Part shown: one piece after another, positions 17,889 through 63,395 of the stretch
Numbering within the stretch: position 1 is the stretch's first letter
Layout of the letters: each line of letters begins with the position of its first letter
Source: Naegleria gruberi
Taxonomy: Eukaryota
Length of the DNA stretch: 64,000 bases
Direction: 5' to 3' (one strand)
Assembly: GCA_000004985.1 (NCBI GenBank)
Contig: GG738921.1
Translations under genes and position numbers: made by a program
Notes under the pieces: model-generated
Told to the model about the DNA's origin: nothing
The model's input: only the letters and a program-made list of their open reading frames with translations
The model's database searches: none

Positions 17889-19670
17889 TTATTGGAATGG
17901 TTCCAATTCAATTTCGAAAACTGAAACTGGTGTCTTCAAACCAAAGTTAGAAGCAACTTCTGGATGAATAATACCGAAAATACCAATCTTCTTGCCCTTG
18001 TAGAAGATATCAGCTTGTCTACCTGGCAAGAAGCTAATATCGTTAGATGGGAAAATTGAGAAACAGTGCTTATCAACAGATTGGCTATGTTCAACTTCGA
18101 ATGGAACAGCTAAAACTTCCATAACTCTGTCAACCAAACCGTGAATCAGTTCCAAACCCGATGTAGCAGATGAGAAGAGAGCAGCAAGTCTTCTATTATT
18201 CTTAGCACCAACATCCTTAGAATCATCAACTAAAATAACATCACCACATTCGAACAATTTGATTGGCAATGGCAATGACTTGTTGCTTTGCAAGGTCTTT
18301 AACAAACCTGGAATCAAACTAATTCTAGCAGTCTTGAATTCGAATGGACATGGTTCAGCAACAGCAATAGCAGTCTTACCATCGTTGACTCTGTTCATGT
18401 ATTTAAAGTTTTCTTCATCGTTACAGAGAATCAAGGACAAAACTTCAGTATATCCTGACATGGCGAGTTCAAGACGCACCATTTCTGACAATTGGTTCAA
18501 TTCATTTTCCTTACCAACAGTTGAAGACTTTGGGAAAGTAATTGGGATATTGTTGTAACCATGAGCAATGGCAACATCTTCCATAATATCACAAGCATGT
18601 AAAACGTCTGAACGAGTTGGTGGAGCAAGAACTCTCAATTCATTATTTTGAGTGACAGTAGCATTCAATTGCATCTTTGTCAAAATTTCTGCAATTTGTT
18701 GAGCAGATAAATTCAAACCAATTCTACTATTAATATAGTCGCTATTTGTAGTGAATTCAACATTATCAAGAATTGGAGTAGGTTCATCCTTTGATTGAGT
18801 CTTATCTTCATATACAATTTCAACTTGTTCAACTGTGAATGGAACAGAGCAATGTTCAGAGAACATGGTAACAACAGTATTCAAGACAACCTTAGCCTTT
18901 GTCAAATCAGTTGCAGTACATTCAATGAAAACATTCTTTGTAGACATTTTGATCTTTGAGTGATCTCCGTTAATAATTGGTGGCAAAGACAAAACTCTTC
19001 TCTTAGCATCTAAAATAACTGGATAAACTGGACTATCCTTGATAATCTTAGTGTAAGGGGACAAGTGCTTCATTTCACTTCCCTTTTTTTCAATAAAAGC
19101 GAAAAGTTCGTCAGCATCCATTAATTCAGTTCTATCCAAAGGAATGAATTTGATTTCTTTTGGTGGAAGAGCTTCATATGTGAAAGGACCTTCAATAACA
19201 TCCAAATCGTGAGTACCAATAGCAACGAGGGTTCTCTTTCTACAAATATTTTGATGAAGCTTTTCTTGTAAATCAATGAAACTATTGTAGGCATCTTCGG
19301 TGAAGGTGATATTTCTCAAGACAGCACCAACAACAAATTTACGGATTGATCCAGTTTCCTTTTTCACGTTAATCTTTAACAATTGTTTGGTTTTGGAATT
19401 ATCAATTTTATAGGTTGGAGCATCTTGACGACCGAGGAAAATGTTCAAAGCTCTGCTCAAGCCTTCTTCACAGAGTAAATCGTATCTGTTGGCTGGGATT
19501 TCAATCTTGTAGATGACTTCATCGGAGAGTTTGCTTGTATCCTTTGCAGAACCCAATTCCTTTTCCTTCATCAATCTTTCAGAGGTAACATCATCCAATT
19601 CAATACCAAAATCAAAACAAAGTTGCTCAAAATCGGCATCGGCTATAGGAGATATTTTTTTAATTTTCAT
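17889..19670 (-). CDS. FARSB: Phenylalanine--tRNA ligase beta subunit, cytoplasmic/eukaryotic type (593 aa).
   Basis: Strong collinear similarity to eukaryotic PheRS beta (FEQLCFDFGIELDDVTSE, IPANRYDLLCEEGLSRAL). Continuous ORF from ATG 19670 to stop 17889. Confidence 0.85.
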   Translation of the reverse strand: MKIKKISPIADADFEQLCFDFGIELDDVTSERLMKEKELGSAKDTSKLSDEVIYKIEIPANRYDLLCEEGLSRALNIFLGRQDAPTYKIDNSKTKQLLKINVKKETGSIRKFVVGAVLRNITFTEDAYNSFIDLQEKLHQNICRKRTLVAIGTHDLDVIEGPFTYEALPPKEIKFIPLDRTELMDADELFAFIEKKGSEMKHLSPYTKIIKDSPVYPVILDAKRRVLSLPPIINGDHSKIKMSTKNVFIECTATDLTKAKVVLNTVVTMFSEHCSVPFTVEQVEIVYEDKTQSKDEPTPILDNVEFTTNSDYINSRIGLNLSAQQIAEILTKMQLNATVTQNNELRVLAPPTRSDVLHACDIMEDVAIAHGYNNIPITFPKSSTVGKENELNQLSEMVRLELAMSGYTEVLSLILCNDEENFKYMNRVNDGKTAIAVAEPCPFEFKTARISLIPGLLKTLQSNKSLPLPIKLFECGDVILVDDSKDVGAKNNRRLAALFSSATSGLELIHGLVDRVMEVLAVPFEVEHSQSVDKHCFSIFPSNDISFLPGRQADIFYKGKKIGIFGIIHPEVASNFGLKTPVSVFEIELEPFQ

Positions 19671-23077: not shown

Positions 23078-23129
23078 GCGTCGATGGTTTAGTGGTAGAA
23101 TACGGCGGGTTCAATTCCCGGTCGACGCA
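23078..23129 (+). pseudogene. tRNA-Gly(GCC)-derived 52-nt element lacking the entire anticodon arm.
   Basis: GCGTCGATGGTTTAGTGGTAGAATACGGCG|GGTTCAATTCCCGGTCGACGCA has an intact acceptor stem, D arm and T arm. The 19-nt anticodon stem-loop, present in the related copy at 58042-58099, is deleted. It shares about 12 nt of 5' flank (gtgaagcg) with that copy. Confidence 0.6.
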
Positions 23130-23331
23130 GCAGAAAGCAATAATTTTGTTCAATTAAAGCTTTTAATGTGAATTGTTTTTACACTACAATCTAGACATAC
23201 CATACTACACGAATCTCAAATACCACATTTTCATTCTTTATATTAGAAAAGATATTAATCAAAGTTAAGACCTCATTTTTTTATTGTGTTTTGTTTTTTA
23301 AAAAATGCAAGTAATGAAAATTTAACAAACT

Positions 23332-24586
23332 TTAATTTTCCTTGTCAATCAAGGCTTGATTCACAGCCATTACCACTCTGTAACGAGCTTGATTCTTGAG
23401 AACCTTTTCAACGGCTTGAGTTACATTATCAAGAGTAGTTAATTCAATTTGTGGCTTAATATTGTGATCAGCAGCAAATTGCAACATTTCCTTCATCAAA
23501 TCGGGAGTGGCACTTGCTGAACCAACAATTGCACGATCTTTGAGGATGAGAGGAAAAGCTGATGCTTTATATATGCCAGAATCAGCTATTTAAATTGTTA
23601 TTTAATTAATTTAAATTAATAATTAATAATTAATAATAATATTAGGAAATTAAAAGTAATTAAAAGTAATTGGAATGCAAAACAAGTTAAATTACTTACG
23701 AAGTCCTAACATGACCATCTTTCCGAATGGTTTCAACATTTGGATAAACTTATCATTATCAATATCAGTGCTAACAGTATTGAGAATCATGTCAAATTTG
23801 CATGAAAGAGATTTTGCATCATTTTCTTCTGTGTGGACAAAGAATTCATCAGCTCCAAAGGATCTGCATTCCTTCTCCTTATTTGCATTTGTGGAAAGGG
23901 CTACAACATGGAATCCCATCTTTTTAGCAAATTGGAGAGCTAAATGACCTAATCCTCCCAATCCCAATACTGCTACTACAAATTCATTTCGTTTCGAATA
24001 AGGACTTTCACGATAGTAGTATAATGGTGAGTAAACTGTGGCTCCAGCACACAACAATGGACTGGCATCGACAGATTTCAACTTGTCTGGAATTGGAAAA
24101 ACAAATCTAGCATCCCAAACAACACCTGTTTGAAAACCTCCTCCAATTGGTGCCTTATCGAAAGGTAAGGTCTTGTCACACAAATTTTCGAAATGATTCT
24201 TACAAGTTGGACATTCGAAACATGAAGTGTAGTGCCATCCCATTCCAACACGATCTGATACCTTAATCTTTGTTTCCTTCTCGACTTGCTCACCAACATG
24301 ACGAACAATTCCAACAATTTCATGACCAGGAATGCAACCAACATTATGCAATGAGTGAATATCTGATTATTTAATAATATTTGATTTGGATAACTACTAT
24401 TACTATTGAAAAATACTAACCTGTATAACAAATACTACTGGCAATTACTTCGACAAAAACCTCCAAAGGACCCAAACTTTTCACTTGTTGCTTGATTGGG
24501 CGAAAGGAGAATTCCTTTCCTTCTTCCTTTTCTGCTACTGCATAACCAGAAACTTGGATTGGTGGATTGATTTCCTTGATAGACAT
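23332..24586 (-). CDS. Zinc-containing alcohol dehydrogenase (MDR; cinnamyl-alcohol / NADP-dependent ADH-like). Three exons: 24586-24421, 24362-23700, 23585-23332.
   Basis: The catalytic Zn motif GHEIVG and the structural-Zn Cys cluster (CFECPTCKNHFENLC) are both present. Rossmann segment VAVLGLGGLGHLALQFAKKMG. Donors GTTAGT and GTAAGT; introns of 58 and 114 nt. Phases are consistent and the protein is about 360 aa. Confidence 0.8.
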
Positions 24587-28178: not shown

Positions 28179-28265
28179 TCCGATGAGACGGAATCGAACC
28201 GCCGACCACAGGATGACAGTTTTTCTTGCTACAGTCCCATGCTCTACCAGCTGAGCTATCATCGG
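28179..28265 (-). tRNA. tRNA-Tyr (anticodon GTA) with a 14-nt intron 3' of the anticodon.
   Basis: CCGATGATAGCTCAGCTGGTAGAGCATGGGACTGTAG[caagaaaaactgtc]ATCCTGTGGTCGGCGGTTCGATTCCGTCTCATCGG. The acceptor stem pairs perfectly and the intron position is canonical for eukaryotic tRNA-Tyr. Confidence 0.85.
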
Positions 28266-31505: not shown

Positions 31506-34500
31506 ATGGAAAGTTATTGTTCATTGGATGAAGACAAGATGATGATGTATTCAAAGAAGCCGGATAATAGTAATGATAACGATAATAGTACTGGAACACA
31601 AACATCATCAAATTGTGGATGTATTGAAAATAATAACAATGATGAAGAAGTAGAACAACAACATGCTGACCAGCAACAACAACAACAGAAAATAGATAAT
31701 GATGAATTGTTAATGGAAATGATTCTAAATAACATACTGCCTATTAATGATAGCAGTGATGATAGTATTACAGCAATATCATCATCCTCAGCAAAATTAT
31801 TATCTAATAATTATTATAATACAGAAAGTAACAATAATTTATCTACCGAAGAAGAACCATCATCATCAACAATGGAAGAAGAGCAAGCTACACTATTGGC
31901 TGATGAAGAATCTGCCAATTATAACATTATCTCTGATTCTTGCTCTACTACATCATCTAACAACTCTAATAACACAACATGCTCAACAAGCACTAATTAT
32001 AATCATCACAAACAACAACATGATGATAAGGACGACAACATGCAATGTAAATACAATGAGAGACAAAGAAGAGCCCTTGCTCTACTGATGGCCATCAGAG
32101 ACAAATATGAGAAAAACCTTGAAAAGAGTAGTAAGATAACAACAACAAGTGGAGGATCTTTATATTCATCTAAAAGGATGAGTTCAACGAGAATAACAAC
32201 TAACACGAGCACAACAGCAGCATGTTCTTCATTCAAAACAATGCTCAAACTTGCACTCGTGTTGATAGTTGGAGTGTGGTGCGTCTTATCATTCATGAGT
32301 GACGTTATAATACTTGATGATTATGCAGCAAGTGGTTTTCATCATCGTTATGAATATTTGGAAGATGATTTCTATGAATTCAATCATAATAATATAATGT
32401 TTGTGATGGCGGAACCACCTGGCATTTCGCCCCAAGCCCTAAAGGAAATACTAAGCAGAGAATCGGAAATTATGAGGCAAGAACCGATATACAATGATTT
32501 TAGCTTCAGTTCCTTATTTTCAATGAATGGTTTACATAGTTTAGCAAGCAAGGCAACTGACTTTTTGCAGAGGGGTGGTTTTGAATCGAGTGCTGATGTG
32601 GCAACTCAATGCCTGATTAATAGTCCGAGAAAATGTGACAACTCTAGGAAATTACAATTGATTCAATTCAACTGGCTTGGACCAACTGTAAATGCTAATG
32701 TTGCCAAGATTGTCCTAGAGGAAATGTTGGGAATATGTGCAGAAATTGTAACAATGAATGTAACTCATGCTCTTGAAGAGATGGCAGAATATGGAACGAG
32801 AAGATCATATGCCATGCTTGAATTTTGGAGTGAATCTAGAAAATTTCAATACGACAAGTATGTTGTCAATGATAAGACTATAATGGGTAAGTTGATATCC
32901 ACCACAATATCAAAAACTAATTCAAATCAAAAATTCAAATTACTATTTTGACAGATGTTGGTGAGTTAGGTATCAATGCAAAGTTGGGTTGGTACATTTT
33001 AGGTTTCATGAAGGATGAGTATGACCTTATCGACGAATACAGAGAGTATAGAACTGAGAAGGCAGCTCACTACCTTGCAACTAACGATACCTATCCACTT
33101 GGTAGGTTTATAGGAGGAGCAAAGAGCTGGATCACTTTTGATCAACAAATTATAACAAATCTCAAGCTCAATCTCCAGATACAATATACACAGGAAGAAA
33201 ATGCAGAGGATTTTCTGATTTCAAAAATTCAAGAAGCAAACGATAGAAAAGAACCAGTATTGTTCTATCTTTGGTATCCTCATCAAATTTTCAAAAAGCT
33301 GTCTATTAAGAATGTTTACCTTCCTCCTAGTTCAGAAAGTTGTTGGACCTCTTACAATCAAGAGAATCAACTCATTGATTGTGACTATCCAACAGAGTTA
33401 TTGAGAAAATTGGTCTCCCCAAAACTCACAGAGGATATGGTTCTCAACTCCTTCTTTTCCAAATTTGCCTATGAAAGTACAGATCAAATAGATATTTTGG
33501 CAGATATTGTGTTTCAGGAAATGTCAGTAGTTGATGCATCTTGTAAGTGGCTGAGAAATAACACAAAAAGAGTAGCTTATTGGGTATCTGATCATAATGA
33601 TACCTCCAGTAGTGTGATTGGTATAGTGATTGCATCTCTGTTTGTCATTTCGCTCTTCTTCTGTACTATATTTATTACTGGTTTGGTGCTTTACTTTATG
33701 TATAGAAAGAATTTGAGAAAGAGATCTCTTAAATATGCCCCAAGAACAACACCATTCACTCTAGTTTTTACAGATATTCAAAACTCTACACTTTTGTGGG
33801 CTACTGCCTCTGAAACGATGAAATCAGTACTGTCTATTCACAACATTATTATGAGGTCAAACATTCAAAAGTACAAGGGTTATGAGGCCAAGACAGCAGG
33901 TGATAGTTTCACTGTGGCATTTGTTGATCCGTTGTGTGCACTGGCTTTTTGCATTAGTGTTCAGAAGGATTTATTGCTGGCCAATTGGCCTTCTGATTCT
34001 CTTCTACTTCCTGATATGAAGGAAGTTAGGTGGAATGAAAGCTTGATTTACAGAGGTCCTAGAATTAGAATGGGAATACATGCGGGATCTGATTGCAATA
34101 TTCAAATTGACAAAAAGACGCAACGTATGGAATATGTGGGCAATATGGTTCATATTGCTAACAAGATTGAGGCATCATCAGTTGGTGGCAGAATTTATGT
34201 TTCAGGTGCTTTTGTCCAAGCTATCAAGAGTAGATTAATGTTGTTTGATTCTGCTTCCAACTCTAGTAATCCAAAGACTTCCAAAGAAGATGTAACTACA
34301 TCTGCCAACACTCAATATTATGATGATTCCTCTGATAAAGGAATAAGCAAATACGTGCAGGAATTGAATAATAACTTGATTGAATTTGAAGATCTAGGAC
34401 CTAAGCAAGAAATTGAAATTGGAGGAACAAAGATACCCTTATTTATGGTAAAAGATTTTAGCTTTGCAAGAACATCTTGGATTCAGCAATTCGAAAGAGT

Positions 34501-34756
34501 TCTAGAAGAGTCACCAGTAGAAGAACAAAAAGTAATTGGCCAAAAATTGGACCTGATTGAAGAGGTGGAAAAGTTTATTACAGATCCGGGCTCATTCCCA
34601 GCTGAAAGAAAGTCAAAATTAATATATGACTTTATCAACCACACCTCCGATGCTGAGCTCAATCTTCCATCATGGAATAGCAAGTATTTTATTGATTTAT
34701 TCGACAATGTCTTCCGTTACATTACTACCCAACATGTAAACATTAAGGAAGAATAA
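31506..34756 (+). CDS. Receptor-type class III adenylyl cyclase (about 1060 aa). Two exons: 31506-32886 and 32955-34756.
   Basis: A 68-nt intron has donor g|GTAAGT and acceptor ttttgacag, joining phase 1. The N-terminal roughly 240 aa are N/Q/S/D-rich. TM1 is LALVLIVGVWCVLSF. A roughly 400-aa luminal/extracellular domain follows, then TM2 (VIGIVIASLFVISLFFCTIFITGLVLYFMY), then the cyclase domain. The cyclase domain has the first metal Asp in FTDIQNST, the second Asp in KTAGDSFTVAF, and the N/R pair in VGNMVHIANKIE and GPRIRMGIHAG. Confidence 0.75.
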
Positions 34757-40555: not shown

Positions 40556-40626
40556 TGCATTAGCCGGGAGTCGAACCCGGGTCACCAGCTTGGAAGGCTG
40601 GTATGATACCGTTACACTACTAATGC
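40556..40626 (-). tRNA. tRNA-Gly (anticodon TCC).
   Basis: GCATTAGTAGTGTAACGGTATCATACCAGCCTTCCAAGCTGGTGACCCGGGTTCGACTCCCGGCTAATGC+A. The acceptor stem pairs perfectly, the anticodon loop is CTTCCAA, and the T-loop is TTCGACT. Confidence 0.8.
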
Positions 40627-57712: not shown

Positions 57713-58099
57713 TGCGTCGACCGGGAATTGAAATTCCTTTTTAGGAATATTATATTTAATATTTAAATAGTTTACAATATTGAATAATGAACAACGTGTA
57801 AATGTGTTGAAGTAGGGTACCCGTGAGTCGATTCACCATATTTGGAAAGGTACCATTCAAGAACAACAACAATAAATGTATTTAATATTAATTATTTGAT
57901 ACCGGGAGTCGCTTTTCCTTTTTGGGAATGTTGTATGTGTGTTATAAACTGGTCGACGCATTTAAAATTTTTTAATTTTTTTAAAAAAATGAAATTGGGT
58001 AACGGGAGACGGTTTACTATATATGGAACATTCAAACATACAATTGAACCCGGGTCACGGCGATGGCAACGCCGTATTCTACCACTAAACCATCGACGC
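57713..58099 (-). pseudogene. tRNA-Gly(GCC) gene split by a 309-bp insertion in the T-loop.
   Basis: The 5' part (58099-58042) is gcgtcgatggtttagtggtagaatacggcgttgccatcgccgtgacccgggttcaatt, which includes the anticodon GCC. The 3' part (57732-57713) is ttcaattcccggtcgacgca. The 7-bp ttcaatt is duplicated at both junctions. Confidence 0.65.
57733..58041. mobile_element. 309-bp insertion within the tRNA-Gly(GCC) gene, flanked by a 7-bp target-site duplication (aattgaa on the plus strand). It is AT-rich, non-coding, and contains short tRNA-like and palindromic motifs.
   Basis: Direct repeats at 57726-57732 and 58042-58048 lie exactly at the break in tRNA continuity. Internal ttcctttttaggaa and ttcctttttgggaa palindromes each sit next to a ccgggagNcg motif. 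Confidence 0.45.
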
Positions 58100-63323: not shown

Positions 63324-63395
63324 GCCGCTATAGCTCAGAGGAAGAGCTTCGATCTCCTAAGTCGAAGGTCGCCGGTTCGAGCCCGGCTAGTGGTA
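63324..63395 (+). tRNA. tRNA-Arg (anticodon CCT).
   Basis: GCCGCTATAGCTCAGAGGAAGAGCTTCGATCTCCTAAGTCGAAGGTCGCCGGTTCGAGCCCGGCTAGTGGT+A. The cloverleaf is good, with acceptor G-U pairs and a T-loop of TTCGAGC. Confidence 0.8.

Follow-up and report, generated by a model that had tools for sequence, protein, structure and literature searches.

The 52-nt element at positions 23078 to 23129 (+) is best explained as an ordinary, young tRNA-Gly(GCC) pseudogene, generated by a 19-bp deletion in one of two paralogous gene copies whose sister was disabled independently, a reading to which we assign a probability of about 80%. The element lies in a 64-kb stretch of Naegleria gruberi nuclear DNA, referred to here as the window, which was the part of the genome covered by our searches. 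The window has a G+C content of about 33% and is gene-dense, and its genes contain short introns. As a check on the organism, we compared the PheRS-beta ORF of the window (17889 to 19670, minus strand) with known proteins and found it to be 100% identical to a predicted N. gruberi protein, the next relatives being an ENA metagenome protein (76%) and the proteins of N. fowleri (72%) and Willaertia magna (67%). This ranking of relatives identifies the window as nuclear DNA of the heterolobosean amoeba N. gruberi.

The initial annotation of the window, made from its sequence, had described a tRNA-like element of 52 nt at this site, and our searches confirmed its existence. The element, GCGTCGATGGTTTAGTGGTAGAATACGGCGGGTTCAATTCCCGGTCGACGCA, is a remnant of a tRNA-Gly(GCC) gene in which the acceptor stem, D arm and T arm survive together with the 5' strand of the anticodon stem, but no anticodon is left. 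It is made of two segments, GCGTCGATGGTTTAGTGGTAGAATACGGCG and GGTTCAATTCCCGGTCGACGCA. The 5' segment (23078 to 23107, +) corresponds to gene positions 1 to 30 and runs from the 5' strand of the acceptor stem through the D arm and A26 to CGGCG, the 5' strand of the anticodon stem. The 3' segment (23108 to 23129, +) corresponds to gene positions 50 to 71; it opens with the final 2 nt of the T-stem 5' strand, continues with the T loop and with the 3' strands of the T and acceptor stems, and closes with the discriminator A. Used as an exact 25-mer, the first 25 nt of the element match two sites in the window, 23078 (+) and 58099 (-), and the last 22 nt match 23108 (+) exactly and 57734 to 57713 (-) with 2 mismatches. 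The number of matches expected from shuffled sequences was 0 for both probes. Furthermore, the element scored 31.5 bits against Rfam RF00005 in a local search, for which the gathering score is 29, and was absent from the gathering run over the whole window. The Rfam alignment shrinks the anticodon arm from 17 positions to 0 and contains one non-standard T-stem pair. ARAGORN, run on the window, made no tRNA call at 23078 to 23129, and the four-arm cloverleaf with an anticodon that a functional tRNA gene requires is lacking from the element.

An intact reference gene was found by scanning metagenomes for D-arm and T-arm motifs located 11 to 30 nt apart. With this gap, the scan returned one relevant intact gene, on contig L008 (JGI Ga0247722_10058881), and six unrelated tandem tRNA-Gly arrays. 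The L008 gene, GCGTCGATGGTTTAGTGGTAGAATACGGCGTTGCCATCGCCGTGACCCGGGTTCAATTCCCGGTCGACGCA, is an intact 71-nt tRNA-Gly(GCC) that adjoins a tRNA-Ile(AAT) and scores 66.9 bits with Rfam, versus 31.5 bits for the remnant. Because the nearest named relatives of the neighbouring BTB-domain ORF on L008 are proteins of N. fowleri and N. lovaniensis (43% identity), this contig derives from a Naegleria-clade organism. The six arrays (ENA/MGnify metagenome contigs L003 to L007 and L009) belong to an unrelated organism; they consist of tandem 73-nt tRNA-Gly genes spaced by about 220 to 790 bp, mostly near 400 bp, with conserved spacers and interspersed CCC, GCC and ACC anticodons. An ACC anticodon on a tRNA-Gly seems unusual.

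Alignment with the L008 gene showed that 52 of the 52 bases of the element are identical, with a single 19-nt gap. Homology to an intact gene is thus combined with a disabling lesion, as is the case for a pseudogene formed by internal deletion. The alignment agrees with the initial annotation in that the element is 19 nt shorter than the full gene and in that the acceptor stem, D arm and T arm are kept, the T stem with four of its five pairs. It also corrects the proposal that exactly the 19-nt anticodon stem-loop was lost. Both lengths, 52 and 19 nt, are right, but the true anticodon stem-loop measures 17 nt (CGGCG-TTGCCAT-CGCCG), and its 5' strand, CGGCG, is still present in the element. The lost block, TTGCCATCGCCGTGACCCG, spans gene positions 31 to 49 (Sprinzl 32 to 51) and takes in the anticodon loop with the 3' strand of its stem, the variable loop (4 nt) and the first three T-stem bases. 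In the element, the last three bases of the retained CGGCG (GCG) replace the missing CCG, so that four of the five T-stem pairs can still form. The deleted 19-mer has a single site in the window, at 58051 to 58069, within the other copy.

The deletion junction, GAATACGGCGGGTTCAAT, lies at 23106 to 23107 (+), where CG constitutes a 2-nt microhomology. Since CG stands before both end points, the gap can slide by two bases (CG/CG). Such a microhomology would be typical of end-joining or slippage. An excision footprint left by a transposon was considered as the cause of the deletion and ruled out, as the TTCAATT site at which the sister copy was interrupted has remained unaltered in the copy at 23078.

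The deletion could also be an artefact of assembly, cloning or consensus calling, or a single allele of a heterozygous locus, that masks a normal 71-nt gene. The only near-identical contig, L010 from ENA (99.4% identity), stops at window position 23667, at a distance of 538 bp from the element, and the DNA fold of the deleted block contains a G+C-rich hairpin, a structure of a kind that can be unstable in clones. However, a clean loss of 19 bp flanked by perfect sequence on either side is atypical of a base-calling error, and the window agrees at 99.4% with this independent metagenome assembly over their overlap. Furthermore, the paralogue described below shows that real structural lesions of tRNA genes occur in the N. 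gruberi genome. We consider an artefact or a masked allele unlikely.

The second copy extends on the minus strand from 58099 to 57713. It is not merely truncated, as its 3' end was found at 57713 to 57732, past a 309-bp insertion in the T loop. The 5' part (58042 to 58099, -) covers gene positions 1 to 58, contains an intact anticodon arm (GCC) and ends in the T loop at TTCAATT. This copy is identical to L008 over 61 nt, and the 5' part reaches only 18.8 bits with Rfam. The 3' part (57713 to 57732, -), TTCAATTCCCGGTCGACGCA, covers gene positions 52 to 71 and begins with TTCAATT, a repeat of the 7 nt with which the 5' part closes. Once the insert is removed, the paralogous copy is identical to the L008 gene at 71 of 71 positions. 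The claim that the window contains no intact GCC copy therefore stands, the copy at 23078 being deleted and the copy at 58099 interrupted.

The insertion (57733 to 58041, -) is bordered by the perfect 7-bp duplication TTCAATT. It contains two diverged sub-repeats of about 181 bp (63% identity), the register of which begins in the T arm. In addition, the final 10 nt of the tRNA recur in it without mismatch and in inverted orientation (57951 to 57960), and a 16-nt palindrome, ATTCCTAAAAAGGAAT, abuts the TTCAATT duplication. Inspection of the insert revealed no terminal inverted repeats and no A tail, and the window holds no second copy of it. The insert could be an uncharacterised mobile or rearranging sequence of Naegleria. 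Two other explanations of the insert were rejected. A diverged tandem copy of the tRNA locus is not supported, as the overall similarity was no better than that of shuffled sequences, although short tRNA-like pieces remain. A non-canonical tRNA intron would be recognized by bulge-helix-bulge borders and by exons that join without duplicated bases, a pattern that the 58099 copy does not display; the 7-bp TTCAATT duplication and the fold both rule it out. In the predicted MFE fold of this copy, the two exons do not pair with each other, and the true 3' end pairs with the inverted 10-mer inside the insert.

The sequences located downstream of both copies establish their relationship. The 3' flank of the element (23130 to 23282, +) is paralogous to the 3' flank of the other copy (57712 to 57560, -): the flanks alone share 69% identity over about 146 nt (z 8.1, with 0 of 500 shuffles reaching the score), and blastn aligned 23110 to 23282 with 57732 to 57560 at 70% identity (E 6e-20). 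Given the significance of this alignment, the two loci are true paralogues produced by a dispersed, inverted duplication of the gene and about 150 to 190 bp of its 3' flank. Descent from a duplicated locus, one of the hallmarks of a pseudogene, is thus established by the 3' flanks. The initial annotation had derived common descent from a shared 5' flank and had missed the similarity downstream; common descent holds, but the 5' flank does not prove it. Directly upstream, the two loci have TGAAYGTGAA in common (9 of 10 positions), for which we estimate an anchored chance probability of about 7e-5, and an unanchored local alignment of the 5' flanks did not rise above shuffles (z 0.8).

Sharing of a downstream block also brings to mind a tRNA-derived SINE or a dicistronic gene of the tRNA-snoRNA type, in which the tRNA part and the following 150 to 190 bp or so would form one unit and the 52-nt head would be a variant promoter module. 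Two dispersed copies in opposite orientation do share a tRNA head and about 150 nt of downstream sequence, with islands of similarity (CTAGRCATACCAT and AATCAAAGTT...ACCTCATTTTTTT), and both downstream blocks are closed by a T7-8 run. However, the 64-kb window contains just two copies, the copy at 58099 has a complete and ordinary tRNA sequence as its head, and the T4-T5 run located 15 nt past the tRNA part would be expected to stop Pol III. On reading the blocks, we saw no A-rich or simple-repeat tail and no C/D box motif. Moreover, the shared 3' block has no Rfam match and no conserved RNA structure (-1.55 kcal/mol), and it is not present beside the intact gene on L008. Many copies, a tail, target-site duplications and the lack of an internal terminator, which characterize tRNA-derived SINEs, do not describe these loci. 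The reading as a SINE or a tRNA-snoRNA gene was ruled out by the Rfam and structure results, by the T run after the tRNA and by the absence of the block on L008, and we regard it as highly improbable.

The comparison of flanks and tRNA parts gives an indication of timing. The flanks differ at about 31% of aligned sites (Jukes-Cantor distance 0.40), whereas the tRNA parts exhibit 0 differences. At the rate of the flanks, the probability of observing no difference would be 5e-9 for 52 nt and 5e-12 for 71 nt. These values indicate that, during most of the period after the duplication, selection on working genes or homogenisation kept the tRNA parts unchanged. Because the flanks are about 31% apart and the tRNA parts are unchanged, both lesions are recent relative to the duplication. 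By our own estimate (exp(-52·d) ≥ 0.05), the deletion dates from approximately the most recent 30% of the per-lineage divergence. Intact sequence in the remnant is expected of a young pseudogene and is not in itself a sign of function.

Both internal promoter elements of the former gene are intact in the element. The A-box-like element, TGGTTTAGTGG (23085 to 23095, +), was assigned by the consensus of type 2 Pol III promoters, and the B box, GGTTCAATTCC (23108 to 23118, +), matches its consensus, as expected of an ETC site. The motif GGTTCRANTCC occurs three times in the window (0.22 expected), the other two matches being within intact tRNA genes. A T4 run at 23144 to 23147 (+), 15 nt downstream of the element, may act as a Pol III terminator; in the paralogue, a T5 run occupies the corresponding position. 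By direct count, the spacing between A and B boxes dropped from 31 bp in the intact gene to 12 bp in the element. Natural spacings in yeast range from 31 to 93 bp, 32 bp being the commonest (PMC11724288). The 12 bp of the element lie well below this range, which is that of yeast and from which the tolerance of Naegleria TFIIIC may differ. The B box is the main determinant of TFIIIC residence, the A box being important for the recruitment of TFIIIB and Pol III (PMC11724288). ETC sites occur in several eukaryotes (PMC11724288). Binding of TFIIIC to the B box of the element is plausible, productive transcription is doubtful, and some transcription of an RNA composed of the acceptor, D-arm and T-arm parts is conceivable. 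Such an RNA could not decode, since it has no anticodon.

These features bear on whether the 52-nt form could have been retained as a functional tRNA-like element, that is, as a Pol III RNA processed by RNase P, RNase Z and the CCA-adding enzyme, or as an ETC-type landmark that holds TFIIIC through its B box. The intact A box, B box and T4 run would suit such a role, as would the predominance of the B box in TFIIIC residence and the occurrence of ETC sites in several eukaryotes (PMC11724288), but the 12-bp spacing is far under the natural minimum of 31 bp in yeast (PMC11724288). Conservation of 52 of 52 bases next to flanks that are about 31% off the paralogue is compatible with function, but a recent deletion accounts for it equally well. 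Likewise, the deletion happens to rebuild four of the five T-stem pairs, but its ends are set by a 2-nt microhomology and not by a structural boundary. The fold of the predicted RNA (MFE -18.6 kcal/mol, z -2.2) contains an acceptor helix of 8 bp and a T hairpin, but this z-score is weak and comes mostly from the acceptor stem. Furthermore, the element is a single instance, no other copy devoid of the anticodon arm being found in the window, in the JGI metagenome contigs or in viral contigs: the scan of JGI contigs for this form with a gap of 0 to 10 gave 0 matches, as did the viral scan (IMG/VR). With a single instance, a 12-bp spacing and a recency that explains the conservation equally well, the suggestion that a minihelix or a Pol III landmark was retained found no positive support, and we judge a functional element to be quite unlikely, no function being required to explain the locus. 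The more specific conjecture that N. gruberi keeps and expresses a tRNA-Gly derivative of about 52 nt, transcribed by Pol III without an anticodon arm, for a non-decoding role (decoy or substrate for tRNA-binding enzymes, primer) or as a TFIIIC-bound chromatin mark, appears very unlikely.

The genomic context is one of high redundancy. The 41-Mb genome of N. gruberi yielded 924 tRNAscan-SE detections, corresponding to 883 tRNA genes and 41 pseudogenes (Bermudez-Santana et al., PMC2888827, supplementary file 2). Single tRNA copies are probably dispensable in a genome with 883 tRNA genes, to which the identical intact gene on the Naegleria-clade contig L008 adds indirect support, and since there are on average about 19 genes per anticodon, the loss of single copies should be nearly neutral. 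In the window, ARAGORN called a tRNA-Gly(TCC) at 40556 to 40626, a tRNA-Arg(CCT) at 63324 to 63395, and no others. We also observed a tRNA gene at 28179 to 28265 (-) whose anticodon position reads GTA and whose anticodon loop is interrupted by an intron of about 14 to 17 nt. It scores 54.8 bits with Rfam and is missed by ARAGORN in default mode; by our own reading of GTA, it would be a tRNA-Tyr. The 64-kb window contains three intact and two broken tRNA loci.

Comparison with N. fowleri revealed zero tRNA genes in L002 and L013, 43 kb in all, versus five loci in the window, which fits an expansion of tRNA genes specific to N. gruberi. The N. fowleri region around PheRS-beta (L002) does not keep the gene order of the window and has no tRNA. 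L013, which carries the homologue of the neighbouring ORF of L008, has no tRNA nearby and no gene order in common with the window. ENA contig L001 extends for just 1.6 kb on the relevant side. Exact look-ups of the neighbouring ORFs and of the small ORFs across the element gave no match.

Two other genes of the window drew our attention. A three-exon zinc-type alcohol dehydrogenase gene is located at 23332 to 24586 (-). The only protein that its 219-aa exon matches at 100% comes from an ENA metagenome (P0121). Among the annotated proteins of N. gruberi, the best match is a 74% paralogue (P0122), so that the gene may be missing from the published annotation. The element is located in the intergenic region that separates this gene from that of a Gly/Pro-rich protein. 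An ORF at 32948 to 34756 (+) joins an OpuAC-type substrate-binding domain (glycine betaine ABC transporter family) to an adenylate/guanylate cyclase catalytic domain.

The proposal that the element is a decayed duplicate is supported by the paralogous 3' flanks, the one 19-bp deletion, the unrelated lesion of the sister copy and the 883 tRNA genes of the genome, with the qualifier that the element has undergone no decay besides the deletion, 52 of its 52 bases being identical, and that the lesion is recent. We propose the following sequence of events. A segment of about 250 to 300 bp was duplicated to two places 35 kb apart in opposite orientation, as is evident from the 3' flanks. The segment included the tRNA gene, about 150 to 190 bp of downstream sequence, and perhaps a short 5' flank, the similarity of which is not significant alone. 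The tRNA parts would have stayed identical while the flanks diverged by about 31%, through selection on working genes or homogenisation with members of the family. Later, a recent and single 19-bp deletion at 23078, visible in the alignment with its CG/CG microhomology, may have occurred by end-joining or by replication slippage beside the anticodon hairpin. The sister copy was put out of action independently by the 309-bp insertion in its T loop.

Some observations weigh against the pseudogene reading. Zero substitutions would also be expected under selection on the 52-nt form. Furthermore, the promoter boxes, T run, acceptor stem, D arm and four of the five T-stem pairs are kept, so that, judged from its sequence, the locus looks transcribable and processable. 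It is also a mild coincidence that both GCC copies of the 64-kb window are broken and yet perfect apart from their lesions. As such, the finding matters little, adding one more disabled copy to a very large tRNA gene family. Its main use is as a caution to annotators, since two Gly(GCC)-like loci in this region are not genes. In addition, a flank divergence of about 31% versus zero change in the tRNA parts offers, on a small scale, a natural means of dating the death of genes in a redundant family. The element would gain wider interest only if the 52-nt form were expressed or bound by TFIIIC.

The element shares features with several known systems. Like tRNA-derived SINEs, it combines a tRNA-related head, equipped with A and B boxes, with downstream non-tRNA sequence that two dispersed copies share; unlike them, it has a terminator-like T run right after the head and no tail, exists as two copies only, and has a downstream block that is absent from the L008 gene. 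Acceptor-TψC minihelices are substrates in vitro of RNase P, RNase Z, the CCA-adding enzyme and some aminoacyl-tRNA synthetases, and the predicted RNA of the element would keep the same coaxial domain formed by the acceptor and T arm. In contrast to these engineered molecules, the element is a genomic locus that retains, in addition, the D arm together with 5 nt of the anticodon stem. Armless mitochondrial tRNAs, which occur in nematodes, mites and similar groups, measure about 42 to 55 nt and are devoid of the D arm, the T arm or both. The element resembles them as a shortened tRNA-like form, but it is nuclear and lacks the decoding part, whereas armless mitochondrial tRNAs, to our knowledge, always retain the anticodon arm and decode.

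ETC sites are regions bound by TFIIIC without TFIIIB and Pol III (PMC11724288, introduction). As in these sites, the intact B box of the element could hold TFIIIC without productive transcription by Pol III; unlike them, the element is the remnant of a whole tRNA gene that comprises an A box and a terminator-like T run. The tRNA pseudogenes flagged by tRNAscan-SE, of which there are 41 in N. gruberi (PMC2888827), resemble the element in being nuclear loci of a redundant family with a disabling lesion, as reflected here by 31.5 versus 66.9 bits. The element differs from them in that it displays no decay by point mutation and has lost the anticodon region while both promoter boxes were spared. 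A feature of this kind is ordinary.
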